DNA of 64,000 bases from Gammaproteobacteria bacterium (GCA_963662545.2 CAXXLL010000003.1:2720001-2784000), one strand, 5' to 3'. Positions 6,277-64,000 are shown, numbered from the stretch's first letter. Numbers and translations are program-made. The notes: generated from the letters alone by a model not told the origin.

Positions 6277-7973
6277 GTGTGCATCCCTAAACGCGATGCG
6301 GTTGAAATAAAAAGGAAAATTTGTCGCTTAAGGGATCGAAACCTCCGGTGGGTCGTGATCTAATGGAACTTCAAACCTCTGATTTTCCACACAATCATCG
6401 ACACCACAGGAGGGGGAATGCGTCAGAAACGCACGGCCCAAGCGAGTATATACGAGCTGTTTGCTGACCATGACCTGGGGCGAGAGCTGCAGGGCATGTC
6501 CGAGTGGCTCGATGCTCACCCCAAGGTCCTCACGCCGGTCATGAACGATCTGTGTCGGCGGGGTTTGAAGCCCACCGGTCGACGCGGACTGTCGGCGGAG
6601 TCGGTGCTGCGCTGCGCGGTGCTCAAGCAGCACCGGCAATTGAGTTACGAGGAGCTGGCCTTTCACCTGCAGGACTCGGCGAGCTTTCAGGCCTTCGCCC
6701 GGTTGCCGGGTAATGAACGTCCGAAGAAGTCTGCCTTACAGCGGGTGGTCTCGGCGATCCAGGTATCGACGTGGGAGTCTATTCATCGCGCCCTGCTGGC
6801 GACGGCGAAAGAGACGCGCATTGAGCCGGCACAGCGTGTACGGATTGATAGCACGGTAACGGACAGTGCCATCCACGCGCCGAGCGACAGTCATCTGCTG
6901 TGGGATGGCGTGCGTGTTGTGGTTCGTCTGCTCGCACAGGCGCGCGAGTTGCCTGGCGCGCCGGAGTTGTGCTTCGTGAACCACACTCGATTGGCGAAGA
7001 AGCGTGCGCGGGCGCTGTGGTATGCGCGTGGTGCGAAGCAACGCCAACGTCTGTATCGCGATTTGATTGGGGCGACGCGTTCAACCTTGGAAGCGGTAGC
7101 GAGGGTACGTGAGCAGCTGCTGAGCCCGGGCGTCACCGGCGTTGAACTGCCGGACTGGCTAGCGCAGGTAGCGCACTACGAAACACTTGTTCTGCAGGTG
7201 ATTTCGCAAACTGAGCGGCGGGTGTTCGGCGGTGAGAAGGTCCCCGCGAGCGAGAAGTGCGTGAGCTTGTTCGAGCCGCATACCGACATCATCATAAAGG
7301 GTGCGCGCGACGTTCAGTACGGACACAAAATCAATCTGGCTTCGGGGCGCAGTGGCCTCATCCTCGACGTGGTCATCGAGCGAGGCAATCCGGTCGATAG
7401 TCAGCGCTTCATGCCGATGCTCGAACGGCATCGAACACACTACGGGACGATGCCACGACAGGTCGCCGCCGATGGCGGCTATGCGAGCCTCGACAATCTC
7501 CGGGCGGCGAAAGCAGAAGGCATCGAAGACGTTGCCTTCCACAAGAAGCGCGGGCTCGCGATCGCCGACATGGTCAAGAGTCAGTGGGTCTATCGACGCT
7601 TGCGCAACTTCCGCGCCGGCATCGAGGCCGGTATCTCCTGCCTGAAGCGTGCATACGGATTGGCACGTTGCACCTGGAAGAGCCTGCCGCACTTCGAAGC
7701 CTACGTGTGGTCTTCTGTGGTCGCCTACAACCTCAGCCTGCTCGCGCGCTATCAACTCGAATAGCGACGTTCACTCGCACTAACTGACCTCCTCGATATC
7801 GTCGAACGGGCGACTTTGGGTTGCAGCGCTCTGCGGCCGGCGAACGTACTCACAATTACGCTCGAAGAGCCCTTCGACCCCCACCGAACCGCCGCTACCG
7901 CTCCAACAACCTACTTTCAACACCTCGATTTCTCCGTGCCCATCGAAGAAAATGCCTGTTTATGGACGGACAC
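6277..7973 (+). mobile_element. ISNCY-type IS, copy 1 (1697 bp)
   Basis: IRs GTGTGCATCCCTAAAC and rc GTGTCCGTCCATAAAC; same length and apparently same sequence as 43902-45598. Confidence 0.9.
6418..7764 (+). CDS. ISNCY-type DDE transposase
   Basis: RIDST, AADGGY and RNFRAGIEAGISCLKR motifs; 448 aa; the family label is from recall. Confidence 0.85.
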   Translation: MRQKRTAQASIYELFADHDLGRELQGMSEWLDAHPKVLTPVMNDLCRRGLKPTGRRGLSAESVLRCAVLKQHRQLSYEELAFHLQDSASFQAFARLPGNERPKKSALQRVVSAIQVSTWESIHRALLATAKETRIEPAQRVRIDSTVTDSAIHAPSDSHLLWDGVRVVVRLLAQARELPGAPELCFVNHTRLAKKRARALWYARGAKQRQRLYRDLIGATRSTLEAVARVREQLLSPGVTGVELPDWLAQVAHYETLVLQVISQTERRVFGGEKVPASEKCVSLFEPHTDIIIKGARDVQYGHKINLASGRSGLILDVVIERGNPVDSQRFMPMLERHRTHYGTMPRQVAADGGYASLDNLRAAKAEGIEDVAFHKKRGLAIADMVKSQWVYRRLRNFRAGIEAGISCLKRAYGLARCTWKSLPHFEAYVWSSVVAYNLSLLARYQLE

Positions 7974-50681: not shown

Positions 50682-52415
50682 TCACCCTAGTTGATATTCG
50701 GGTCGGCTCAGCATCAGGTGCAATAGCACACGCAGCGGTTCTTCTAAATAGGTGCGGGCGGACAACACATCCTTCGTACCGAGTTCCCGTTCGAAAGCAT
50801 CGGCCAGCATCTTTAGTATCTCGTCGTCCGGCGCTACGGAGAAAAAACGCTCGATGAAATAATCGACCACCGCGGCAGGTGCCGCCAATTCCAGACTCAT
50901 GACCGAACGCGTTAAATCGAGGCGCGCAAGATGGCGGGGAATGGGTTTGACCCGTTCGATCGCCATCTGCCAGCCGCGGTAGCTGCCGTAGCGGGTATTA
51001 AAATCCTCTTCCCGGTCGACCATATTCGACATGGCCATCATGCCGTCGGTGTTTACTGCGTCAACCGGTCGGGTCGCGCTAGCCATGTCTTCGCCATCGC
51101 GCAAACGTCGGTGGACCGCGAGTATCTCAGCGCCGCTCGGGTATTCGGGATAGCGATCATTGGGTACGAACGCGATGTCAGGAAAGACCACATCGAGAAC
51201 GAAGTTGCCGCGCTCGATCAAGAGGCTCGGTGTGATCCAGCTGCGCCCGTAGCTCCAACCCGCCACCGTCGGCGGATGCATCAGGCGCTGCCCCAGGCTC
51301 TCGGTAAGCAGGTTGAAGTCGGGTGCGCCAGGAACTTCGGCCAAGCCAAATTTGCGGTAGGTTGAAATGACGAGTTCTACGGGGCTCTTGATCCGCGTAC
51401 CTATTGATCGCGAGGCGTAGAAGTCCCGTGACAAAAACAGTGTTTCAAGAAACGGTGTGATCTCGTAATTGAGTGCCTTGAGGCGCGCGCCCAGCACCAC
51501 TTTGAATGCCGGTGTTAGCTCATCGCTGACGAAGAATCGATACAGTTTGGCCGCGATGAATTCGGTCGTGGCGGTTTGGTCGAGGATGATATCGATCACT
51601 TCGACGCCGTCGAACCGCCCCGTGCGACCTAGGAATACTTTTTCATCGTCGTCGTGCTTGGCCGCGTCGATCTTGAATTCGAGACCCGCGTAGTTCCATC
51701 CGGTGAACGCGCGCGCGCCTTCACGTATATCTTGCTCCGAATAGTTACCGACGCCCATGGTGAACAGTTCCATGATCTCGCGCGCGAAGTTTTCATTCGG
51801 CGAGCCTTTGACGTTCACGCCCGCGTCGAGAAAAGCGAGCATCGCCGGATCCTGCGCGACGCCAAGCAGCAAGGTGCGAAAATTGCCGAGACCTGCGCTT
51901 TGAAACAATTCCAATTGCTTCAACATCTTCCGATAGTCGCGGACTTTATCCTCGTTGGTCGCGAAGTGCCCGTGCCAGAACAGCGCGACCTTCTCCTGCA
52001 AGGGGTAAGGCGTGGCCAGCATGCGTTGGGCCCACCAATAGGCCACCCGATCGGTTTCGAGACGACTGGCACGCAGCCAGTAAAAAAACTCGTTGACGAT
52101 CGCTTGCATGGGGCGATTGCCCGAGGTCTTGACTTCGATCCCGAGCGATTTACCCTGCTCGGCCGCGAGCGCCGTGGTGGCGGGACGGCTTGGCGGGAAG
52201 GGATCGAGCCCGTCGTTGAAGATGCCTGAGTGGTCGAACGGCGGGAGTGGATTTTCCGCGGCGTTGAACCGTACCAGCGTTTGCACCGCTTGCTGCGGTG
52301 ACATGCCCGCAAGGTGATCGATCTCAGCGGGGGTGCCGCCGAAGGCAGCGCGTTCCAACAGATGCCGGGCTTTGTCCCGGTCCCATTCTTTGGGGGCAAG
52401 AGGTGATAAGTCCAA
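50682..52415 (-). CDS. DUF1800-family protein
   Basis: ARHLLERAAFG, LFWHGHFAT, PNENFAREIMELFTMG and PPTVAGW motifs; start uncertain because the IS91 end sits 24 bp upstream. Confidence 0.85.
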   Translation of the reverse strand: MDLSPLAPKEWDRDKARHLLERAAFGGTPAEIDHLAGMSPQQAVQTLVRFNAAENPLPPFDHSGIFNDGLDPFPPSRPATTALAAEQGKSLGIEVKTSGNRPMQAIVNEFFYWLRASRLETDRVAYWWAQRMLATPYPLQEKVALFWHGHFATNEDKVRDYRKMLKQLELFQSAGLGNFRTLLLGVAQDPAMLAFLDAGVNVKGSPNENFAREIMELFTMGVGNYSEQDIREGARAFTGWNYAGLEFKIDAAKHDDDEKVFLGRTGRFDGVEVIDIILDQTATTEFIAAKLYRFFVSDELTPAFKVVLGARLKALNYEITPFLETLFLSRDFYASRSIGTRIKSPVELVISTYRKFGLAEVPGAPDFNLLTESLGQRLMHPPTVAGWSYGRSWITPSLLIERGNFVLDVVFPDIAFVPNDRYPEYPSGAEILAVHRRLRDGEDMASATRPVDAVNTDGMMAMSNMVDREEDFNTRYGSYRGWQMAIERVKPIPRHLARLDLTRSVMSLELAAPAAVVDYFIERFFSVAPDDEILKMLADAFERELGTKDVLSARTYLEEPLRVLLHLMLSRPEYQLG

Positions 52416-52438: not shown

Positions 52439-53206
52439 GCATATAGGAAATATAACCCCCTTACATGGTGGGTTTCCAGGCTATCGGGTTATTCATTGTG
52501 GCGGGACTGACGCTGTTCATGGCGTGATCAGGCGGTGGTTGCGGCGGAATTTGTGTGGAATTTAGGGCGAGATCGGGCGGACATGCGGGGTCAGGTTGAA
52601 CAAGAGCCTGCCGCATCGGGGCACGGCATCTGTGGGGGAACGGGGCAGTTCAGGTTGTGTTGAACAGGCTGGCCTGAGGGGGTGCCCGGGGTTCGGGTAA
52701 TGAATTGATCCGGGTGATGGGCTTGGTTCTGTCGAGGTGGTCGAGAATCTTGCGGATGACGAGGGGGTCTTCGATGCAGGCCATGACCTTCAGGGTGCCG
52801 TCACAGGCCTGGCAGGTGGTGATGTCGATGTGGCCTACAGGGATGTAGGTCAGGGGCATGAGCAGGACGCGGAAGCTTTGAAGACCCGCTTGAGGCGTTG
52901 CGCCCAGGTCGCCGCTCTTGCGCATCCCTGCGCCCGCGGCATTAGTGCATCCCTGCACGTCATGGCGGTATGGCGCTCGGCGGGGGTTCGGTCGTGTGTC
53001 TCGTCGGTGGCGCTCTTGCGGCCCTTGCCGCGCCTGGCCGGAGTGATCAGTGCCCGGTGTTTGCTGTTGGGGGCGAAGACACCGTGACAAATTTATCTGG
53101 AATAAATTTGGACGACCGAAGGTCGCCCGAAGGGTGAGGAACAGGGATGTTCCTCATCAAAGCGGGTGAGGTTGACTCGGGGTTTGGGGATCAGTGCGGC
53201 GAGGCG
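52439..53206 (-). mobile_element. 768-bp copy of the IS91 3' end (matches 38748-39515)
   Basis: Starts at the same oriIS-like motif and carries the same hairpin insertions. Confidence 0.9.
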
Positions 53207-53590: not shown

Positions 53591-54244
53591 TGAATGCGGT
53601 ATCGGTGCCCGGGAGAGTCCGAACCAAAGGGCGTGGGGAGGTACTTTGAGGCCGAAAGAATTGACGTGGCTAATCGGCTCGCGCTTCGGCGACACTGCCG
53701 CACGCGCCGCCGGAAGCATCGCGCGAAAGCATACCCCGCGCTTTGTCGAGGTAAATGCATAGAACATAAACTTTGATCTAAAAGCATGGAGAGGTGCCAG
53801 AGTGATCGAATGGAGCTGACTCGAAAACAGGCATGCCTGAAGATTGTTCTTGGGGGGAACACGCGGGATATCTCGTTATCCACTTAGTCAAAGATTTCGC
53901 GAACTAGATCTAGTAACGTGCCTCTTTCGATTACCCCTTCCGTATCTTTGTTCGACGAGTTACAAACCGTTGATGCTTGAGCACCAACAAAAATACATCT
54001 GCGATTGCACTCGACACACATACTCATGCTCGTTCTCAACGGAGCTTACGGTTTGCAGGTTTTCGAACGCAAACCTTCGCTTGTTATCCGCGCCTGTAGT
54101 CCGGAGTGATTTGGTGTCATTGTTACGATGACGTGCTACCCGAATCGGCACGAGCTATCGCCGAATACCTGCCACCAAACCTGCCATCTAAATCAGCAAG
54201 TCGTCAAAGGAATTTACTGCTTCGGTGTTAACTTGTTGAATATA

Positions 54245-54294
54245 TGGTGGCCAGGGGCAGAATCGAACTGCCGACACAGGGATTTTCAGTCCTC
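54245..54294 (-). other. att site: 3' half of tRNA-Phe(GAA)
   Basis: rc GAGGACTGAAAATCCCTGTGTCGGCAGTTCGATTCTGCCCCTGGCCACCA has the anticodon loop, T-arm and CCA; the D-arm and 5' acceptor strand are absent. Confidence 0.85.
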
Positions 54295-54845
54295 GTGGGG
54301 TAGATTCTCAAAAAATCTTGGAAGTTCTTATAGGATTGAATAAACAAACAAACCAGGAAGCATTGACATCTTTTTAAATGCCAGACGTTCTGAGCTTTCG
54401 TGTAATTTTCTATGCTGAATTACACGAAATTTACCCTTGGTGAACGAAACCTTGTAGCACAAGATTGCGACAAGTCGGCGAACGATCCTGCTAGCCTACC
54501 GGCATCTGTCCGTGTCATAGAACCAGTTAGCCTTAGATGAAGCTCTCATGTGCGCCTGGGGGACCGACGACATCTGGGATAAGCATGACCAAAAGCTGTT
54601 GATGGCGATGGGCGAGAAAGAAGGACGCGAGGCTCGGAATGTACATCGTCAAAGTTTTTTCAGGGCAGAGTGCGCCTGGATCGAAGAGCGTATCCAGCTC
54701 ATCTGGTTTGCCAACCAAACTGCCCGTTGCTGGTAGCGTAGCCGACGACGCTGCTCCATCGCGCGCCGTTTGATTTTGTGATGCATGGACATAATTGTCT
54801 AGCCGCGCTCGCAGTACATGTCGCCGATAGCAGGTTATTAAGATC

Positions 54846-54887
54846 GTGCTCGTATACTTGACGCTATGGCGTCAAGTATACGAGCAC
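54846..54887. repeat. Perfect 19-bp inverted repeat with a 4-nt loop, downstream of the integrase
   Basis: GTGCTCGTATACTTGACGC-TATG-GCGTCAAGTATACGAGCAC. Confidence 0.9.
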
Positions 54888-54927
54888 CGAGCCGTCGTCG
54901 AGCTGTGATTTCTTCAAGGCCATATGA

Positions 54928-56133
54928 TTAGGACACCTTGTCGTCCAAGGTGTCTTCATAGCAAGATTCCAGTTTCCTCATCGCAAATGCAATATGTTCG
55001 CCATTCGCATGTGCGTAACGTTCCACCATAGCGAGTGTTCTGTGGCCACTAATTCGCTTTACCGTAGGAAGGTCGACACCGCTTTGCACCAAATGAGTGA
55101 TAGCGGTGTGGCGCAAAACGTGAGGCGTGACGATGTCGGGGTCAAGACCAGCAGCCCTCACGACACGTCGCATGCCTTTTCTAACAGTATTAGTGTGCCC
55201 TGTCTTTGCGCCTGAGGAAGGGAAAATCCAGATCGTGTCCTTGGGTAACGAATCGCAATACGGTTGGAGATAGCTCGCTAGTTTTGTGGTCATCGGCTGA
55301 TCTCGCTGCCCGGCTTTGGCTTTTGGGATATGTATGCGACGGCGCTCAAAATCGATGTCGGACTTCCTTATAGAGAGGATTTCGCTCAACCGCATGCCTG
55401 TTTCAAGACCTATTCTGATAAACGCATAGATTTGCGTGTTGGAATCCTCTTTCGCAGAGTCGAGAAGCGCCTTCGCTTGATTTGACGTCAAATACGTGAT
55501 GCGGCCACTGTCCTCCCGAAGTTTGCGGATGCGACAGGGTCGGCGATCAATCCAACCCCAATCGACGGCACTGTTCAGAAGGTGAGATAGCACGGCGAGT
55601 TCGCGATTTATCGTCGCCGCTTTAACAGTGGTTTCTTTGAGGCGCAAACGCTTGGCATCGGGCTTGCCATTGAGGGCCTTCTGAGATCTGCGCTTCTTCT
55701 TGTATCGCTCGACGTCGAAGTCGGTGATCTGCGACAGCGGCTTCGAGCCAAAGAAGGGGATGAGGTGAAGGGTTAAACGTTTCTCCTTGCGGTCAATTTC
55801 ATTTCCACCTGACTTCCGCAATTTCCAGATATACTCAGTTGCGGCCTCCCTGAACCCACGCAGAGTTTTTCGGCGTTTCGGCAAATTCAACCGGTCGTGC
55901 TTAGCATCAGTTCGAATCTGCGCGATGTAATCTTCTACCTGTTTTCGCGTTGTGCCATCGGATTCGTGGCCTACTACGCGATGGATGCGCTGTCCATCCA
56001 CCATGATGTTTATCGAGAACACACCGTCGCCATTGGACTTGCGCTCGAACGTAATGCCGTGTTCAGTGATGGACTGACGGGACGCTAACTTGCGCATTCG
56101 CGAACGCGTCAACTTGGAGAAAGATTTGGCCAT
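54928..56133 (-). CDS. Tyrosine recombinase/integrase
   Basis: TGMRLSEI, PKAK, HVLRH, SGH and ERYAH provide the R-K-H-R-H-Y set; 401 aa. Confidence 0.9.
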   Translation of the reverse strand: MAKSFSKLTRSRMRKLASRQSITEHGITFERKSNGDGVFSINIMVDGQRIHRVVGHESDGTTRKQVEDYIAQIRTDAKHDRLNLPKRRKTLRGFREAATEYIWKLRKSGGNEIDRKEKRLTLHLIPFFGSKPLSQITDFDVERYKKKRRSQKALNGKPDAKRLRLKETTVKAATINRELAVLSHLLNSAVDWGWIDRRPCRIRKLREDSGRITYLTSNQAKALLDSAKEDSNTQIYAFIRIGLETGMRLSEILSIRKSDIDFERRRIHIPKAKAGQRDQPMTTKLASYLQPYCDSLPKDTIWIFPSSGAKTGHTNTVRKGMRRVVRAAGLDPDIVTPHVLRHTAITHLVQSGVDLPTVKRISGHRTLAMVERYAHANGEHIAFAMRKLESCYEDTLDDKVS

Positions 56134-56145
56134 GTTGGTTAGCTA

Positions 56146-56838
56146 GTGTGCATCCCTAAACGCGATGCGGTTGAAATAAAAAGGAAAATTTGTCGCTTAA
56201 GGGATCGAAACCTCCGGTGGGTCGTGATCTAATGGAACTTCAAACCTCTGATTTTCCACACAATCATCGACACCACAGGAGGGGGAATGCGTCAGAAACG
56301 CACGGCCCAAGCGAGTATATACGAGCTGTTTGCTGACCATGACCTGGGGCGAGAGCTGCAGGGCATGTCCGAGTGGCTCGATGCTCACCCCAAGGTCCTC
56401 ACGCCGGTCATGAACGATCTGTGTCGGCGGGGTTTGAAGCCCACCGGTCGACGCGGACTGTCGGCGGAGTCGGTGCTGCGCTGCGCGGTGCTCAAGCAGC
56501 ACCGGCAATTGAGTTACGAGGAGCTGGCCTTTCACCTGCAGGACTCGGCGAGCTTTCAGGCCTTCGCCCGGTTGCCGGGTAATGAACGTCCGAAGAAGTC
56601 TGCCTTACAGCGGGTGGTCTCGGCGATCCAGGTATCGACGTGGGAGTCTATTCATCGCGCCCTGCTGGCGACGGCGAAAGAGACGCGCATTGAGCCGGCA
56701 CAGCGTGTACGGATTGATAGCACGGTAACGGACAGTGCCATCCACGCGCCGAGCGACAGTCATCTGCTGTGGGATGGCGTGCGTGTTGTGGTTCGTCTGC
56801 TCGCACAGGCGCGCACGCGCCGGAGTTGTGCTTCGTGA
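56146..56838 (+). mobile_element. ISNCY copy 3, truncated
   Basis: Left IR and 5' transposase identical to copy 1; degrades at about 56815. Confidence 0.85.
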
Positions 56839-56859
56839 GTTTTTCGTATGCGCGTGGTT

Positions 56860-57130
56860 CAACGCAAATTCAACCGGTCGTGCTTAGCATCAGTTCGAAT
56901 CTGCGCGATGTAATCTTCTACCTGTTTTCGCGTTGTGCCATCGGATTCGTGGCCTACTACGCGATGGATTTCGCGCTGTCCATCCACCATGATGTTTATC
57001 GAGAACACACCGTCGCCATTGGACTTGCGCTCGAACGTAATGCCGTGTTCAGTGATGGACTGACGGGACGCTAACTTGCGCATTCGCGAACGCGTCAACT
57101 TGGAGAAAGATTTGGCCATGTTGGTTAGCA
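56860..57130 (-). pseudogene. Duplicate of the integrase 5' end with small indels
   Basis: Matches about 55880-56143. Confidence 0.8.
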
Positions 57131-57148
57131 TCGATTACGTGGCCAATT

Positions 57149-57951
57149 GTGTGCATCCCTAAACGCGATGCGGTTGAAATAAAAAGGAAAATTTGTCGCT
57201 TAAGGGATCGAAACCTCCGGTGGGTCGTGATCTAATGGAACTTCAAACCTCTGATTTTCCACACAATCATCGACACCACAGGAGGGGGAATGCGTCAGAA
57301 ACGCACGGCCCAAGCGAGTATATACGAGCTGTTTGCTGACCATGACCTGGGGCGAGAGCTGCAGGGCATGTCCGAGTGGCTCGATGCTCACCCCAAGGTC
57401 CTCACGCCGGTCATGAACGATCTGTGTCGGCGGGGTTTGAAGCCCACCGGTCGACGCGGACTGTCGGCGGAGTCGGTGCTGCGCTGCGCGGTGCTCAAGC
57501 AGCACCGGCAATTGAGTTACGAGGAGCTGGCCTTTCACCTGCAGGACTCGGCGAGCTTTCAGGCCTTCGCCCGGTTGCCGGGTAATGAACGTCCGAAGAA
57601 GTCTGCCTTACAGCGGGTGGTCTCGGCGATCCAGGTATCGACGTGGGAGTCTATTCATCGCGCCCTGCTGGCGACGGCGAAAGAGACGCGCATTGAGCCG
57701 GCACAGCGTGTACGGATTGATAGCACGGTAACGGACAGTGCCATCCACGCGCCGAGCGACAGTCATCTGCTGTGGGATGGCGTGCGTGTTGTGGTTCGTC
57801 TGCTCGCACAGGCGCGCGAGTTGCCTGGCGCGCCGGAGTTGTGCTTCGTGAACCACACTCGATTGGCGAAGAAGCGTGCGCGGGCGCTGTGGTATGCGCG
57901 TGGTGCGAAGCAACGCCAACGTCTGTATCGCGATTTGATTGGGGCGACGCG
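57149..57951 (+). mobile_element. ISNCY copy 4, truncated by IS6
   Basis: Left IR and transposase up to LIGATR, then the IS6 IR. Confidence 0.85.
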
Positions 57952-58749
57952 GGTTCTGTCAGGTTGGCGCCGGATCGCGGACAATTAACGCATGACAGAA
58001 GCTCCTAATTATCGCGGATATCGATTTCCGCCTGAAATCATCGCGCGGTCGGTGTGGTTGTACCCTCGTTTTACGCTCAGCTTTCGCGATATCGAAGACC
58101 TTTTAGCCGAGCGCGGCGTGACGGTTTCGTATGAAACTATCCGCCAGTGGTGTCTGACGTTTGGACCCGATTACGCTCGCCGAATTAGGAAACATCAGGG
58201 GCCTTGCGGCGACTGTTGGTTTCTCGATGAGGTCGTCGTCTCAATTCAAGGAAAGCGTCGTTACCTTTGGCGAGCCGTGGACCAAGACGGCGATCTGATG
58301 GAGATCCTCGTACAAAAACGCAAGGATACTAAAGCCGCTAAGCGCTTCTTTCGAAAGGCGCTACGCTCACAAACAGCCGTTCCTATCGAGATAACAACCG
58401 ATAAGCTCCGTAGTTACGCCTCAGCCAAACGCGAGGTAATGCCGTCCGTGCCACACTGCCAAGATCACTATGCGAATAACCGCGCGGAAGTTTCACACGA
58501 GCCGACGCGGGAACAAGAAAGGCAGATGCGCGGGTTTCGATCGGACGGACACGCGCAGCGCTTTCTAAGCGTCCACGGTCAAGTCAACAATCTGTTTCGC
58601 CTCGGTCGTCATCTCCTCAGAGCGAAGAACTATCGTGAACTACGCTCCAAGGCATTTCTCACTTGGTCGGAGGTGACATGCGCCTGCTGATTGACGATGA
58701 TTCTACTTGCTCGAAAGATCGGGCCTGCGCGCAACAACCTGACAAAACC
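57952..58749 (+). mobile_element. IS6-family IS (transposase 57992-58690)
   Basis: IRs GGTTCTGTCAGGTTG and rc GGTTTTGTCAGGTTG (14/15); YRGYRFPPEII, WFLDE, ITTDK and NNRAEVSH motifs. Confidence 0.9.
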
Positions 58750-58792
58750 GCTACCACCACAAGGACGACCAACCGGACAGCCGTCACATTAC

Positions 58793-58883
58793 AAAAAATA
58801 AAAAGGGCCCGACGATGTCGGACCCTTTGGGTACAGCATTTTGCTTTATTGTAACAACGGCTCTCACCCCGGATTGCTGCAAT
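58793..58883 (-). ncRNA. tracrRNA of the type II-C CRISPR-Cas system
   Basis: rc reads anti-repeat ...GAGAGCCGTTGTTACAAT, AAAGC nexus-like segment, GGGTCCGAC/GTCGGGCCC hairpin and U-tract; immediately upstream of cas9. Confidence 0.8.
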
Positions 58884-58908
58884 AGCGCTTAGTATTATCG
58901 GAGGTTTC

Positions 58909-61900
58909 GTGATGACGCGCAACAATCTCTCCCTAGGCCTCGACATAGGAATCGCATCAGTTGGTTGGGCTGTCCTGGATTCGGATCACATCATCGCTCT
59001 CGGCGTTCGAGCATTCAATAAGGCCGAAGTCGCTCAAACAGGGGAGTCACTCAATCTTCAACGACGTAGCGCACGACTTGCGAGGCGTACATTAAGACAC
59101 CGACGTCAAAGGCTCGCAAAGCTCGCGAAACTACTAGAAGCCTCGGGCGTTATCACAAAAGAGCGGCTTTACGCCACACCGACGCGAGAAAGTTATCCAT
59201 CGCCTTGGGCTCTTCGAGTCAAAGGTTTAGATGAATGTCTTGCGGGCGAGGAATGGGGCCGCGTTATCTATCACATTTGTAAGCACCGTGGTTTTCATTG
59301 GGTTAGCCGTGTGGAGGAAAAAAAGTCTGGCGAGAATGCGAAACAAGAAGGCGGAAAAGTGAAGCAGGCCCTCAAATCGACGAGAGGTCTATTTGCTTCT
59401 AAGAAATATCGCTCAGCTGCCGAGATGATTATCTCTGAATTTCCCGATGCCTATCGGAACAAGCATGGTGATTATGGAAAAGCGCTGTCTAGAACACTGT
59501 TAAGCGAGGAACTCGAACTCCTTTTCCAACGGCAAAGTTGCCTTAAGAATCCACATGCAACCGATTTTCTAAAAAATGCAGTGTTGGGTAAGGGGGACAA
59601 GAAGACAGGCCTTCTCTGGGAACAACACCCTGCACTGTCTGGGGATGCGCTGCTTGCCATGCTCGGGAAATGCACGTTTGAGCGTCAAGAGTACCGGGCA
59701 CCGCGAAAGAGCTTCACTGCCGAACGTCATGTTTTATTGACGCGGCTCAACAATCTTCGAATAACCATTGACGGTGCAAGAAGGCCACTGACCGACAATG
59801 AGCGCCGATGTGCTCTATCACTTTCTTATGAACGGGCGGCTGATATTAAGTATTCAAAACTTCGGTCAGCCTTAGAAAAGACTTGCGGAACACCTTCTGA
59901 GTTTGCATTCGTGGGGCTTGCCTATCCGAGTGAGTTTCAAAAACAAGAGGAGAAAGCAAAGAATCCCGAGGAGGCAGCCGTTTTTAAATTGCCGGGCTGG
60001 CACGAACTGAGAACTACGCTTAAAAAAGCCGGTCTCGAAGACGAATGGAAACAGCTTACGTGCCTCGCATTAAAAGGTGACCCCACATTATTGGACCAAG
60101 TGGCTTGGGTTTTAAGTGTCTACAAAGAAGACGAAGAAGTGGTGGCGGCTTTGGACGATTTACCCCTGCCAAATAAAGAGGCGGTAATAGATGCGCTCCT
60201 TAGCGTGCAGTTCTCGGAGTTTCATGCATTATCGTTGAAGGCGCTTCGAAATATCGTGCCAAAAATGGAGTTAGGGCTCCGATATGATGAGGCTTGTACA
60301 CAAAGTGGTTATGACCATAGTCAACCGTTCGATCCAGAACGACAGAAAAGCCAATCACTACCGCCGTTCTACTTAGGCCATGACCATTTATCGCGAATGC
60401 GTTTAAACGAAGACGTAGGCGATTTACCCCGAAACCCAGTTGTCATGCGCGCCCTCAATCAGGCTAGGAAAGTCGTTAATGCACTAGTGGGAAAACATGG
60501 AGCTCCCCACTCTGTACATATAGAAATGGCCCGCGACCTTTCACGTCCGCTAACCGAGCGTAGAAAGATTCAAAAAGAGCAAGATGACTACCGGGATAAA
60601 AATGACAAAAACCGCAGCTTCTTTATAGAGCAGTTTAACCGCGAACCCCGAGGGCAAGAGTTCCAGAAACTTCAACTTTATCGGGAACAATCCGGTAAAT
60701 GTCTTTACTCCCTTGCTCCACTCGATCTGTCAAGATTGTTAGAGATGGGTTACGTAGAAATCGATCATGTTTTGCCGTACTCAAGAAGCTATGACGATAG
60801 TAAAAATAACAAGGCCTTAGTTCTCACAAAGCAAAATAGAGACAAAAGCGATTTAACTCCGTACGAGTATCTTCAGGGCGCTCAAGATACTGAAGCGTGG
60901 ATAAAGTTCTCGGCCTTCGTCAAGTCCAACAAAAACTACCGCGCCGCGAAACGAAACCGTCTTCTAACGAAAGACTTCGACGAAGAGAATGCTAAAGACT
61001 TCCAGGAACGAAATCTAAATGACACGCGGTATATCTGCCGATATTTCAAGAGTTACTTAGAGGAATATTTAGAACTCTCCGACGAGAGCGAACACCGACG
61101 TTGCGTGGTGGTCAATGGCCGACTAACCGCATTTCTGCGTGCTCGCTGGGGGCTCCATAAAGAACGCTCTGAGAGTGACAGACATCATGCATTGGATGCC
61201 GCGGTCGTAGCGGCGTGCACTCGCGGCATGGTCAAACGCTTGGCCGATTACGCTAAGGGCCGAGAGCTACGTTATGTTCAGGCAGATTCCATTGACCGGG
61301 AAACCGGAGAGATTATTGATTTCGACAGGTATAAAAAACTAGAGAACGAATTTCCACAACCCTGGCAAGGCTTTCGGGGAGAGCTACTCGCGCGGTTAAA
61401 CACAGACGATGTGTCCACCCTGAGAGCATCATTGTCGAAACTCGGAACTTACAGTCGTGAGGAAATCGAAGCGGTAAAACCACTCTTCGTCTCACGGGCA
61501 CCCCAACGCCGGAACTCCGGCGCAGCGCATATGGACACAATTTATCAGCAAACAACAAGGCTTAAAGATGAGCGAAAAATCAGCCAAAAAATCAAGCTCG
61601 CCGGTCTGTCTTTTCGGCAAACCAAGAAAACGCCGAAACCCATAACCGAGCAAATAGAACAATTCGTGAAAAAATTGGCTGACCCACATAGAAACCAGAA
61701 ACTCTACGACGCTGTTTGTGATCGGTTGAAGGCATTCGCGGGCGACGGGAAAAAAGCGTTCAGTGCCGAGAACCCTCTCTACAAACCGGACAAGAACGGA
61801 AACCCGACAGGACCCATTGTCCGAACAGTGACAATGAGCGAGCGAATGTCCGGGATTCCAGTTCGGGGTGGATTGGCAAAGAACGAAACCATGCTTCGCG

Positions 61901-62295
61901 TGGACACATTTTCAAAAGGAGGCAAGCACTATCTTGTCCCGGTCTATGTACACCACAAGGTAACTGGTCTACCCAATCACGCTATCGTTAGCGGGAAGGA
62001 TGAGGCCGACTGGAGAGAGGTGGACGAGACATTTGAGTTTGAATTTTCCTTATATCCGAATGACTTGTTGCAAATTTGCCTCAAAAAACAGACGCACCTT
62101 GGGTATTTTGCTGGCTGTAATCGATCCAATGGGGCCATACATTTGTGGGCCCATGATCGATCGTCCAAAGTGGGCAAAAACGGCCTAATAAGCAGTATCG
62201 GTATTCAAAGGGCAAAGCACCTTAAAAAGTTTGAAGTTGATGTGCTCGGAAACCGTTTTCTCGCGAAAGCCGGTAAGCGAGATGGGCTGGCGTAG
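58909..62295 (+). CDS. cas9: Type II-C CRISPR-associated endonuclease Cas9 (1128 aa)
   Basis: RuvC-I LGLDIGIASVGWA, Arg-rich bridge helix, RuvC-II HIEMARD, HNH EIDHVLP...NNK...N and RuvC-III HHALDA. Confidence 0.97.
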   Translation: MMTRNNLSLGLDIGIASVGWAVLDSDHIIALGVRAFNKAEVAQTGESLNLQRRSARLARRTLRHRRQRLAKLAKLLEASGVITKERLYATPTRESYPSPWALRVKGLDECLAGEEWGRVIYHICKHRGFHWVSRVEEKKSGENAKQEGGKVKQALKSTRGLFASKKYRSAAEMIISEFPDAYRNKHGDYGKALSRTLLSEELELLFQRQSCLKNPHATDFLKNAVLGKGDKKTGLLWEQHPALSGDALLAMLGKCTFERQEYRAPRKSFTAERHVLLTRLNNLRITIDGARRPLTDNERRCALSLSYERAADIKYSKLRSALEKTCGTPSEFAFVGLAYPSEFQKQEEKAKNPEEAAVFKLPGWHELRTTLKKAGLEDEWKQLTCLALKGDPTLLDQVAWVLSVYKEDEEVVAALDDLPLPNKEAVIDALLSVQFSEFHALSLKALRNIVPKMELGLRYDEACTQSGYDHSQPFDPERQKSQSLPPFYLGHDHLSRMRLNEDVGDLPRNPVVMRALNQARKVVNALVGKHGAPHSVHIEMARDLSRPLTERRKIQKEQDDYRDKNDKNRSFFIEQFNREPRGQEFQKLQLYREQSGKCLYSLAPLDLSRLLEMGYVEIDHVLPYSRSYDDSKNNKALVLTKQNRDKSDLTPYEYLQGAQDTEAWIKFSAFVKSNKNYRAAKRNRLLTKDFDEENAKDFQERNLNDTRYICRYFKSYLEEYLELSDESEHRRCVVVNGRLTAFLRARWGLHKERSESDRHHALDAAVVAACTRGMVKRLADYAKGRELRYVQADSIDRETGEIIDFDRYKKLENEFPQPWQGFRGELLARLNTDDVSTLRASLSKLGTYSREEIEAVKPLFVSRAPQRRNSGAAHMDTIYQQTTRLKDERKISQKIKLAGLSFRQTKKTPKPITEQIEQFVKKLADPHRNQKLYDAVCDRLKAFAGDGKKAFSAENPLYKPDKNGNPTGPIVRTVTMSERMSGIPVRGGLAKNETMLRVDTFSKGGKHYLVPVYVHHKVTGLPNHAIVSGKDEADWREVDETFEFEFSLYPNDLLQICLKKQTHLGYFAGCNRSNGAIHLWAHDRSSKVGKNGLISSIGIQRAKHLKKFEVDVLGNRFLAKAGKRDGLA

Positions 62296-63190
62296 CGTTG
62301 TCATTTCGTCCCCAGCAGTGCTTAAACGACGGCACAATTCTCTCGCGATTATTCAAGGCAACACGGCGCTCATACCGTTTGAAGATATCGCGGTTATCAT
62401 TTTAAACCACCGAGAAATTACGTTAACGCACCCGGTCTTAAGTTTCTGCTCTCAGCACGGAATAGCGCTCTTCGCAACAGGAGATGACCATCAGCCGTGC
62501 GGTGTTTTCGTTCCGTTCCTTACGCATACCAGGACTACCAAGTTACTACGACAACAGCTGTCAGCCCCGAAACCGTTAACTAAGCGGACTTGGGCTGCAA
62601 TCGTTCAATCGAAGATCCACAATCAATCCACTTGCCTGCGACTATCGGGTAAGCGGGGTGCGTCTCAATTGGAGTCCTATAGGCGCCGCGTCAGATCTGG
62701 TGACAGCACCAACATGGAAGGCCAAGCCGCCTGGGCATATTTCACCCAACTGTTCGGCGATAAGTTCCGACGGGGCGCAGACGATTGGAGAAACTCCGCT
62801 CTTAACTATGGATACGCTGTACTTAGGGGGGCGATCGCCCGCTCTTTGGTGGGGCATGGTTTTCATCCGAGTGTTGGCTTGTTTCATTCGAGCGAACGAA
62901 ATGCATTCAACTTAGCTGACGACATCATTGAGCCTTTCAGGCCTGTCGTAGACCTATCGGTCGTAAAACGCTATGGCAACAGTGACAAGATAGCGCTTAC
63001 AACCGAAGACAAGGCTTATTTAATATCGTTGCTCAACGTCGATGTCAGCTTGTCTAACGACAAAACATCCGTGCTGTCCGCAATCGATGATGTTGTCACC
63101 AGCATCATGCGAGTTTTTGAACAGCAAGACGAAGCTCTGCTCGTTCTTCCCATTTTGCTGGGGATGAATCAACACGTCGATAATGATTGA
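62282..63190 (+). CDS. cas1: Type II CRISPR-associated Cas1
   Basis: MGWRSVVIS, IPFEDI, NMEGQAA, NSALNYGYAVLR and FNLADDIIEPFRP motifs; overlaps the cas9 stop. Confidence 0.95.
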   Translation: MGWRSVVISSPAVLKRRHNSLAIIQGNTALIPFEDIAVIILNHREITLTHPVLSFCSQHGIALFATGDDHQPCGVFVPFLTHTRTTKLLRQQLSAPKPLTKRTWAAIVQSKIHNQSTCLRLSGKRGASQLESYRRRVRSGDSTNMEGQAAWAYFTQLFGDKFRRGADDWRNSALNYGYAVLRGAIARSLVGHGFHPSVGLFHSSERNAFNLADDIIEPFRPVVDLSVVKRYGNSDKIALTTEDKAYLISLLNVDVSLSNDKTSVLSAIDDVVTSIMRVFEQQDEALLVLPILLGMNQHVDND

Positions 63191-63192
63191 CG

Positions 63193-63307
63193 GTGGGAAC
63201 GGAGACCCGCCGACATATGAGAATGCTGGTGTTATTTGATCTCCCGATGGTCACGAAGGAGCAAAAACGTACATATAGTCGATTCCGTCGATATCTCCTC
63301 TCAGACG
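63193..63307 (+). pseudogene. cas2: cas2 5' part, interrupted by IS66
   Basis: MRMLVLFDLPMVTKEQKRTYSRFRRYLLSD, then GTAA at the IS66 end. Confidence 0.9.
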
Positions 63308-64000
63308 TAACCGGTCAAACGGCGGCGTCTGGTAATTGATCTCGTGTTGCGGTAACGACGGCCAAGTTAGAACGCAGCGGTTGGGTAGCGAACAATGTCT
63401 TCCACACCCGAGGCGTGAGTTGTTCCACTGCGCTATCCGGATGGATCGCGATCCTCTGGAGTACATCAACCAGGTAGGTGTACGGATTAATGCCGTGTAT
63501 TCGGCAAGTACAGATCAAACTTTGTATGATCCCAACGTGTTCAGCGCCCACCTCAGTCCAACAGAACATCCAATTCTTTCGGCCCATCGGAATGGGTCTC
63601 AGAGCGCGCTCTAAATGATTCGTGTCGATCGCGACGCTCGCATCCGATAAGTAAACACGTAACGCGCCCTCACGCTCGGCTGCATAGGCCAGCGCCTTCG
63701 TAAACGGCTGACTCGGTAATAAACCCATGCACTGGCGTTGCTCGTCAAGCCAGGCAAAAAATGCATCAACCGCAGGCAAGGCGTACCGGCTGCGGTAGGT
63801 CTGGGTCGCCGCTTCATCCATTGCCTGGTCACGGATGGTGGCCTCAACGGCATACAGTGCCGCGATCAAATCAAGTGCCTGCGCCGCACTTTGTGGCCTA
63901 TCGGATAATGCCCTTTCGAACTGACGACGCGTGTGCGCCCAGCATTGCGCATGCACGACTTCATCGCCGCGATCGGCGGCAAAACGCGCATAAGCCGCGG
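63307..64000 (-). mobile_element. IS66-family element (right end and TnpC C-terminus), running off the window
   Basis: GTAA terminus; CWAHTRR, IDTNHLERALRPIPMGRKNWMF and SLICTCRIHGINPYTYL motifs. Confidence 0.9.

Follow-up and report, generated by a model that had tools for sequence, protein, structure and literature searches.

We describe a type II-C cas9 locus, and the island in which it lies, in a 64,000-nt stretch of DNA from a gammaproteobacterium (GCA_963662545.2, CAXXLL010000003.1:2720001-2784000; hereafter, the window). DNA to the right of the window was also fetched, in two pieces called L002 (window-equivalent 64001-84000) and L003 (84001-96000), where window-equivalent positions continue the numbering of the window. 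The locus comprises cas9, cas1, cas2, a predicted trans-activating CRISPR RNA (tracrRNA) and a CRISPR array, and it is located between two repeats derived from a tRNA-Phe gene, one of which is adjacent to a tyrosine integrase gene. It is likely that this system, which resembles that of Neisseria meningitidis (Nme), is carried by a foreign island of about 36.7 kb that was integrated at the 3' end of tRNA-Phe by the tyrosine integrase and has since decayed through the activity of insertion sequences (ISs). The principal features are as follows.

54244-54292, minus strand: distal attachment (att) repeat, made of the 3' 48 nt of tRNA-Phe(GAA) plus 1 nt; direct repeat of the intact gene
54928-56133, minus strand: tyrosine integrase gene (int), 401 aa; its 3' end faces the distal att repeat, 635 nt away
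58793-58883, minus strand: predicted tracrRNA, about 90 nt; anti-repeat at 58849-58883, then a small hairpin inside the RNA and, as terminator, a 12-bp hairpin with a run of T
58912-62295, plus strand: cas9, type II-C, 1127 aa, recognised by TIGR01865, by Pfam and by alignment with PDB 6jdq
62282-63190, plus strand: cas1, 302 aa (start codon ATG, 62282), overlapping the end of cas9 by 14 nt
63217-63305, plus strand: first 30 codons of cas2; the remainder is at L002:1662-1888 (window-equivalent 65662-65888), past an IS66 element
63306-65661 (window-equivalent), minus strand: IS66 element in cas2, 2356 nt, with tnpA, tnpB and tnpC

The cas genes, the array and the tracrRNA

The cas9 open reading frame (ORF) extends from 58909 to 62295 and encodes 1128 aa if translation starts at a GTG codon, which is the length given in the initial annotation of this DNA. 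The form found in databases has 1127 aa and starts at the ATG at 58912, the codon right after the GTG, with a GGAGG located 7 nt upstream of the ATG. The protein scores 739.6 bits against the equivalog TIGR01865 (cut-off 100) and matches the Pfam families HNH_4 and RuvC_III. Its best match among solved structures is PDB 6jdq, which we take to be of the Nme1Cas9 type (residues 5-1116, 728 bits, E 1.9e-217). In this alignment, the motifs DIGIASVGW, HIEMARD, EIDHVLPYS...NNK and DRHHALDA are correctly placed, and the motifs with the RuvC-I Asp, the RuvC-II Glu, the HNH His/Asn and the RuvC-III His/Asp are all present; together with the TIGR01865 and Pfam matches, this bears out the earlier description of a whole Cas9 with its RuvC and HNH catalytic motifs. 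Judged by these motifs, Cas9 appears to be catalytically complete, and cleavage that depends on a protospacer-adjacent motif (PAM) is predicted.

Cas1 scores 277.8 bits against the cas1_NMENI model (cut-off 120). The third gene, cas2, is interrupted by IS66: its reading frame resumes unbroken on the far side of the element, an 8-bp target duplication (TCTCAGAC) is present on both sides, and the 3' part of the gene matches Cas2 (TIGR01573). Only one cas1 and one cas2 were found in the entire genome, and the splitting of the sole cas2 by IS66 therefore implies that the adaptation module has been lost in this strain.

The CRISPR array, for which a search beyond IS66 had been suggested, was indeed found there, at L002:1950-2536. 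It is separated from the cas2 stop codon by 60 nt that contain no gene or ORF, and consists of eight repeats of 36 nt, five spacers of 30 nt, one spacer of 36 nt, and one unit of 114 nt. On the plus strand the repeat starts with ATTGTAGCA; the minus strand is the sense strand of the CRISPR RNAs (crRNAs), and on it a TGnTAnAAT-like motif is found at the end of every repeat. The final repeat is cut by a second IS66 (76% similar to the first), which abuts an IS21 element, and the remaining part of the array was found nowhere in the genome. Csn2 and Cas4 domains were absent from the neighbouring ORFs. Type II-C is defined by a set of three genes, as stated in an excerpt of PMC5965381. By its gene content (cas9, NMENI-subtype cas1 and cas2, without csn2 or cas4, accompanied by a tracrRNA and an array), the locus is assigned to type II-C, in agreement with the initial annotation. 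That annotation also implied an intact Cas9 system, which holds for Cas9 and the tracrRNA and fails for the system as a whole, with cas2 split and the array cut off.

The tracrRNA had been proposed at 58793-58883 with no strand given; the coordinates are right, and both an anti-repeat and a terminator were found there. The segment 58861-58883 differs from the CRISPR repeat by one mismatch in 23 positions, a level of agreement that was reached by none of 100 shuffled sequences. The sole terminator-like site in 58600-59100 is a minus-strand hairpin of 12 bp (58828-58802) with a T run after it. The predicted RNA has a fold energy of -34.3 kcal/mol (z = -3.3), and the duplex between the anti-repeat and the crRNA repeat reaches -48.9 kcal/mol, with nearly the full 36 nt paired around an internal bulge. 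As expected, an opposite-strand control also pairs with the repeat; the choice of strand is thus based on the terminator and on the layout in related loci, and the tracrRNA is assigned on these grounds to the minus strand, divergent from cas9. A search of 40000-64000 against Rfam with permissive E-values returned no match, for the tracrRNA or otherwise. In the plus orientation, a GTGACA-17-GATGAT sequence at 58673-58701, in the right end of the neighbouring IS6-family element, is the sole promoter-like site in 58600-59100 and is directed at the tracrRNA and cas9.

The 114-nt unit (L002:1985-2098, window-equivalent 65985-66098) is located between the first and second repeats, where the usual length is 30 nt. 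The 89 nt at its centre (65997-66085) match exactly, and in the same orientation, a stretch inside the IS66 tnpC gene (64296-64384), as well as 12 other copies of this block in the genome; on either side of this core lie 12 and 13 nt of unrelated sequence. Because the 12 nt beside the downstream repeat (in crRNA sense) do not match IS66, no self-targeting guide would be expected from this unit. A fragment of IS66, too large or otherwise aberrant, might once have been acquired by the array, in which case the locus would record a fight between Cas9 and an IS that the IS won by knocking out cas2; we consider this scenario very doubtful.

The six spacers of normal size (spacers 2-7; L002:2135-2164, 2201-2230, 2267-2296, 2333-2368, 2405-2434, and 2471-2500) matched only themselves in the host's own genome, including a 17.6-kb contig. 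No match was found in phage records or in plasmid records, four of which (from Pasteurella and Acidovorax) match the repeats only, and the hits obtained in 164 related loci were chance hits of 15-22 nt. Mapping the spacers, one of the checks suggested in the initial annotation, thus yielded no target in the collections searched, and the role in inter-element conflict that was raised there finds no support in the own-genome, phage, plasmid, family-genome or related-locus sets.

The cas stretch is near-identical in runs of seven studies. Contigs of four runs (X1, X4, X7, and X10, from four studies) were compared over window-equivalent 57901-66700 (numbered separately as L173). In three of the four studies (X4, X7, and X10), the contigs join L173 position 5397 straight to position 7761, that is, cas2 is whole and IS66 is absent; ten letters whose placement at the junction is ambiguous agree with the target duplication. 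The X1 contig runs into IS66. In X7 and X10, there is also a form of cas9 that lacks 57 nt in frame (61294-61350, codons 795-813, in the RuvC-III region; depth 2-5), and X7 carries both this form and the long one. Three of the four runs give no coverage of the spacers in the array (L173 8233-8526).

Borders, composition and content of the island

The two borders are marked by a 49-nt repeat that is identical at both ends and has the same orientation. At the right border, it is part of an intact tRNA-Phe gene (window-equivalent 90918-90993; L003:6918-6993; C3 c[2810918-2810993]), the only tRNA-Phe gene in the genome, which lies outside the window, 36.7 kb to the right of the distal repeat. The segment between the repeats therefore measures about 36.7 kb and includes the entire cas locus. 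ARAGORN found no tRNA gene in the window: what had been described as the att site is an att-type repeat consisting of the 48-nt 3' fragment of tRNA-Phe plus one base, and not a tRNA gene. The far repeat is located beyond cas9 and not before it.

The integrase matches Pfam PF00589 (Phage_integrase, E 5.9e-36) and has no internal stop. Its homologs (395-401 aa), found in many Proteobacteria, are 57-63% identical to it over 95-100% of its length, so the protein is full length in comparison, as claimed earlier. The distances from cas9 given in the initial annotation (within 3 kb for the integrase and 4.6 kb for the att repeat) were also correct, the former being 2.8 kb from the integrase start. 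The gene is located at the end of the island far from the intact tRNA; this layout fits an attP site just 3' of int, as would be expected from how site-specific recombination works.

Several other sequences were observed in the vicinity of the borders. A perfect inverted repeat of 19 nt with a 4-nt loop (54846-54887) lies between the int stop codon and the att repeat, and a 62-aa ORF (54548-54736) belongs to no family; no excisionase was recognised. To the left of the island, a 43-nt stretch (53788-53830) has the look of a tRNA's 5' half, of the Ser type as judged by eye, but is not called as a tRNA by ARAGORN; it matches several places in this genome and in relatives at 85-93% identity. In the same flank, 52439-53206 (768 nt) has one other copy in the genome (99.87% identity). 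A third tRNA-Phe 3' fragment, in the same orientation and diverged, is present 276 kb from the distal repeat (L005:5161-5207; G000:C3:2498160-2498206). Its two changes fall at positions that would be partners in the T stem, and it is flanked on one side by IS91-type and truncated IS6 transposase genes and on the other by ordinary genes.

The GC content is 48.6% in cas9, 50.2% in cas1, 51.7% in int, and 48.7% in the gap between att and int, compared to 58.1% for the genome, which agrees with the earlier remark that the locus is AT-richer than the host genes; by this measure the locus is judged to be compositionally foreign. The MutY protein of the host groups with those of uncultured Gammaproteobacteria. 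Cas9 was not found in either of the same-genus genomes (0 of 2); among same-family genomes a Cas9 was found in only 2 of 36, at no more than 35% identity. Neither the repeat and spacers nor the integrase were found in any of 80 other genomes of the family. The nearest Cas9 is a single protein of 86% identity, encoded on a 6.3-kb metagenome contig, followed by hundreds at 62% identity or less. A metagenome scan with Cas9 gave a best match of 62% and did not return the 86% relative, and no Cas9 relatives were found on viral contigs. The nearest relatives with names come from Nitrosomonadales, Rhodocyclales, and Thiobacillus (50-61%), and also from Gallionella. The similarity search that had been suggested thus places the closest named kin in betaproteobacteria, at 62% identity at most, and the protein, far from being near-identical to a characterised ortholog, is distant from every ortholog of solved structure.

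Between the integrase and the cas locus, the following features were found.

56140-56838, plus strand: truncated copy of a high-copy IS with a DUF772, ISNCY/IS5-like transposase; starts 6 nt 5' of the integrase ATG
56864-57148, minus strand: repeat of the first 94 integrase codons, with one TGA; 91% identity over residues 1-94
57149-57951, plus strand: second copy of the DUF772 IS; cut off by the IS6-family element
57952-58749, plus strand: IS6-family element, multi-copy, with its transposase at 57992-58690 (NF033587, 207 bits); left border of the cas locus in this genome

The first of these elements lies so close to the integrase ATG that the native int promoter and ribosome-binding site must be gone. 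The region also contains a tandem duplication of about 1 kb (55881-56814 vs. 56864-57817; 97.9% identity with small indels), which encompasses integrase codons 1-94 and the start of the IS. The 803-nt stretch of the second DUF772 copy (57149-57951) belongs to a class with 42 hits elsewhere in the genome. A composite transposon made of two IS6 elements was considered and rejected: the element at 57952-58749 and the one at window-equivalent 72950-73738 have no megablast match with each other, and the missing half of the interrupted DUF772 IS follows neither IS6 copy.

Going by multi-copy boundaries, ISs make up about 17.4 of the 36.6 kb of the island. The set includes two truncated DUF772/ISNCY-like elements, two different IS6, two IS66, three IS21, and two IS3. 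The other genes of the island encode an acyl-CoA dehydrogenase, a GNAT protein, a lone hydantoinase B, an Old-Yellow-Enzyme-like reductase, trypsin-like and M48 peptidases, and a Sel1 protein (whose gene is split by IS21), in addition to ORFs that belong to no family. A Pfam scan of the ORFs between the repeats (at least 80 aa in L002 and L003, and at least 60 aa in the part within the window) detected neither a gene for a relaxase or coupling protein nor one for type IV secretion, and PADLOC detected no other defence system in the island. From its gene content, the element is classed as an island and not as an integrative and conjugative element (ICE). The initial annotation had presented a mobile Cas9; with about half of the island made of IS DNA, an IS at the integrase ATG, and no conjugation genes found, mobility is not borne out, and at present the island probably moves poorly or not at all.

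Origin of the locus

The history that we consider likely may be set out as follows. The island would have entered the 3' end of the single tRNA-Phe gene of the host through recombination mediated by the tyrosine integrase, and the cas locus would have arrived with the integrase as its cargo. Later IS activity would then have split cas2, through the first IS66, and cut off the end of the array, through the second. Cas9, the tracrRNA, and the six spacers of 30 or 36 nt may still direct the cutting of matching DNA adjacent to a PAM, and the strain would be unable to acquire new spacers. Transcription of the crRNAs may start at the extended -10-like motif that ends each repeat, as in N. meningitidis; promoters inside the repeats of this species and of Campylobacter jejuni are described in an excerpt of PMC5965381.

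A number of observations weigh against this history, in whole or in part. The integrase and the cas locus are parted by two truncated ISs, the 1-kb duplication, and the IS6-family element, and no native junction between them survives; IS6-family elements can import or delete neighbouring DNA. The cas9 contigs of X7 and X10 extend 252 and 519 letters, respectively, to the left of 58750 and do not fit IS6 there, which indicates that the IS6 insertion is lineage-specific too. Among 80 related Cas9 loci (see below), only one (L069) has a relative of this integrase, at 29% identity. The third tRNA-Phe fragment suggests that tRNA-Phe was hit by more than one event. With regard to the borders, homology to the same-genus genomes stops at about position 52383, and the sequence to the left of the distal repeat lacks conservation even among members of the genus. 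In one of these genomes (G002), the tRNA-Phe gene and the right flank are 90% identical, starting at the tRNA gene, and the genes downstream of tRNA-Phe are unrelated and non-mobile; no clean empty site was found in relatives. Concerning expression, a sigma-70 scan, which needs a -35 box, found no site inside the array and no promoter site for the tracrRNA, 5' of whose anti-repeat a weak TTGCGC-17-GATAAT can be seen by eye on the minus strand.

The foremost alternative is that the cas locus was never the cargo of this integrase and arrived separately, either in a tandem element whose inner att site was lost or through an insertion or rearrangement involving IS6 or IS66. This is a possibility of some weight, although we regard it as unlikely. 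It is consistent with the borders of the cas locus, which are IS6 on the left and IS66 abutting IS21 on the right, with no native integrase junction. It would also account for the missing half of the DUF772 IS, which is found nowhere else in window-equivalent 52-93 kb and so shows a deletion or rearrangement at IS6, and for the mosaic GC content of the island, parts of which span 45.7-60.2%. The rarity of integrase relatives at related loci and the repeated use of the tRNA gene point in the same direction. However, no inner att remnant was detected: there is no third copy of the 49-nt repeat in window-equivalent 50-95 kb, even with up to 14 of 49 mismatches allowed. In addition, the cas genes have the same low GC content (48.6-51.7%) as the integrase and the att-int gap, the repeat and spacers and the integrase are alike missing from the 80 other family genomes, and the failure of the two IS6 copies to match each other argues against a simple composite transposon. 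Arrival of the cas locus as cargo of the integrase thus remains the preferred reading. As for the initial claim that Cas9 is the cargo of a tRNA-Phe element, its position between the repeats, with an intact integrase, is upheld, whereas the link between integrase and cas genes is indirect.

It has been proposed for CampyICE1 (van Vliet et al., 2021, PMC8743540, as presented in an excerpt) that Cas9 is aimed at rival elements, and the present island might likewise be a working mobile element whose Cas9 targets rival plasmids or islands. This published precedent, the full-length integrase with its catalytic residues, the two intact att repeats, the intact Cas9, tracrRNA and six spacers, and the whole cas2 in strains of three of the four studies would all be compatible with such a role. 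Nevertheless, we find it highly improbable: none of the ORFs scanned encodes a relaxase, coupling protein or type IV secretion component according to Pfam, the region 5' of int has been replaced by an IS, no excisionase was recognised, and the spacers match no plasmid or phage record, no family genome, and no part of the host's own 17.6-kb contig. Finally, it is scarcely credible that the two tRNA-Phe repeats are unrelated leftovers around a variable chromosomal region, as the tRNA-Ser-like fragment and the repeated 768-nt segment in the left flank, which is not conserved in relatives, might suggest, given that an identical 49-nt repeat in the same orientation beside an integrase is a signature of site-specific integration and that the right flank is 90% conserved in a same-genus genome from the tRNA gene on.

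Related loci and known systems

The comparison set consisted of 80 related loci from named genomes, 56 of which include at least 5 kb upstream of cas9. Repeat-like matches were found 3' of cas1/cas2 in 66 of the 80 loci, always on the strand opposite cas9; in the other 14, the downstream flank is at most 1.3 kb. An anti-repeat-like match lies 45-75 nt 5' of cas9 in 11 loci, with the same orientation as here. The arrangement of genes and array described above is thus the norm of the clade. Examples of the closest loci are those of Nitrosomonas nitrosa Nm90 (L053), Propionivibrio limicola (L057), and Ca. Desulfobacillus denitrificans (L082). The loci from Nitrosomonadales, Rhodocyclales, and Thiobacillus share with the present one a Cas9 of 50-61% identity over its full length, the gene order, and an array downstream on the opposite strand, but differ from it in that 79 of the 80 loci lack any relative of this integrase; the link to the integrase does not characterise this Cas9 clade. 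In four of the 80 loci (L007, L009, L011, and L017), a tRNA-Leu gene is located about 265 nt 5' of cas9 on the opposite strand, which hints that some related loci also sit at tRNA genes.

Among known systems, CampyICE1 is an integrative conjugative element of Campylobacter with a Cas9 of type II-C (van Vliet et al., 2021, PMC8743540). According to an excerpt of that publication, it has in common with the present locus a type II-C Cas9, short arrays, location on an integrated element, and an adaptation side that is missing or broken. However, CampyICE1 is 70-129 kb long and conjugative, contains Cas9 alone, and has spacers most of which map to plasmids (as given in the same excerpt), whereas in the island described here Pfam revealed no conjugation genes, cas1 is present, the break in cas2 is recent, the spacers yielded no target, and ISs account for half of the DNA.

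A type II-C Cas9 on an integrative element has thus already been published, and CRISPR-Cas systems on islands, plasmids, and ICEs are documented; the present locus opens no new question in this respect. What it adds is a compact type II-C Cas9 of 1127 aa, with at most 62% identity to all database relatives but one, for which the tracrRNA and the repeat are fully defined, so that a single-guide RNA and a PAM screen are directly feasible. More generally, it may represent a natural case in which a tRNA-linked island brought a CRISPR-Cas9 locus from one proteobacterial lineage into another, where ISs are now dismantling it; sister strains have kept cas2 unbroken.

The closest parallel in organisation is the type II-C system of N. 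meningitidis. The two loci share a gene set limited to cas9, cas1, and cas2, a Cas1 of the NMENI subtype, 36-nt repeats, and 30-nt spacers, as well as near-full-length pairing of the anti-repeat around an internal bulge and a TGnTAnAAT-like end of the repeat. The Cas9 proteins align end to end with all catalytic motifs; the three-gene operon is described in an excerpt of PMC5965381. Compared to Nme1Cas9, the present protein is a distant ortholog whose C-terminal, PAM-reading part is not to be equated with its counterpart, and the locus differs from that of N. meningitidis in its interrupted cas2, its short and cut-off array, and its host, an uncultured gammaproteobacterium. Every defining feature that could be tested was found, and on this basis the system is classified as a type II-C system of the Nme kind.

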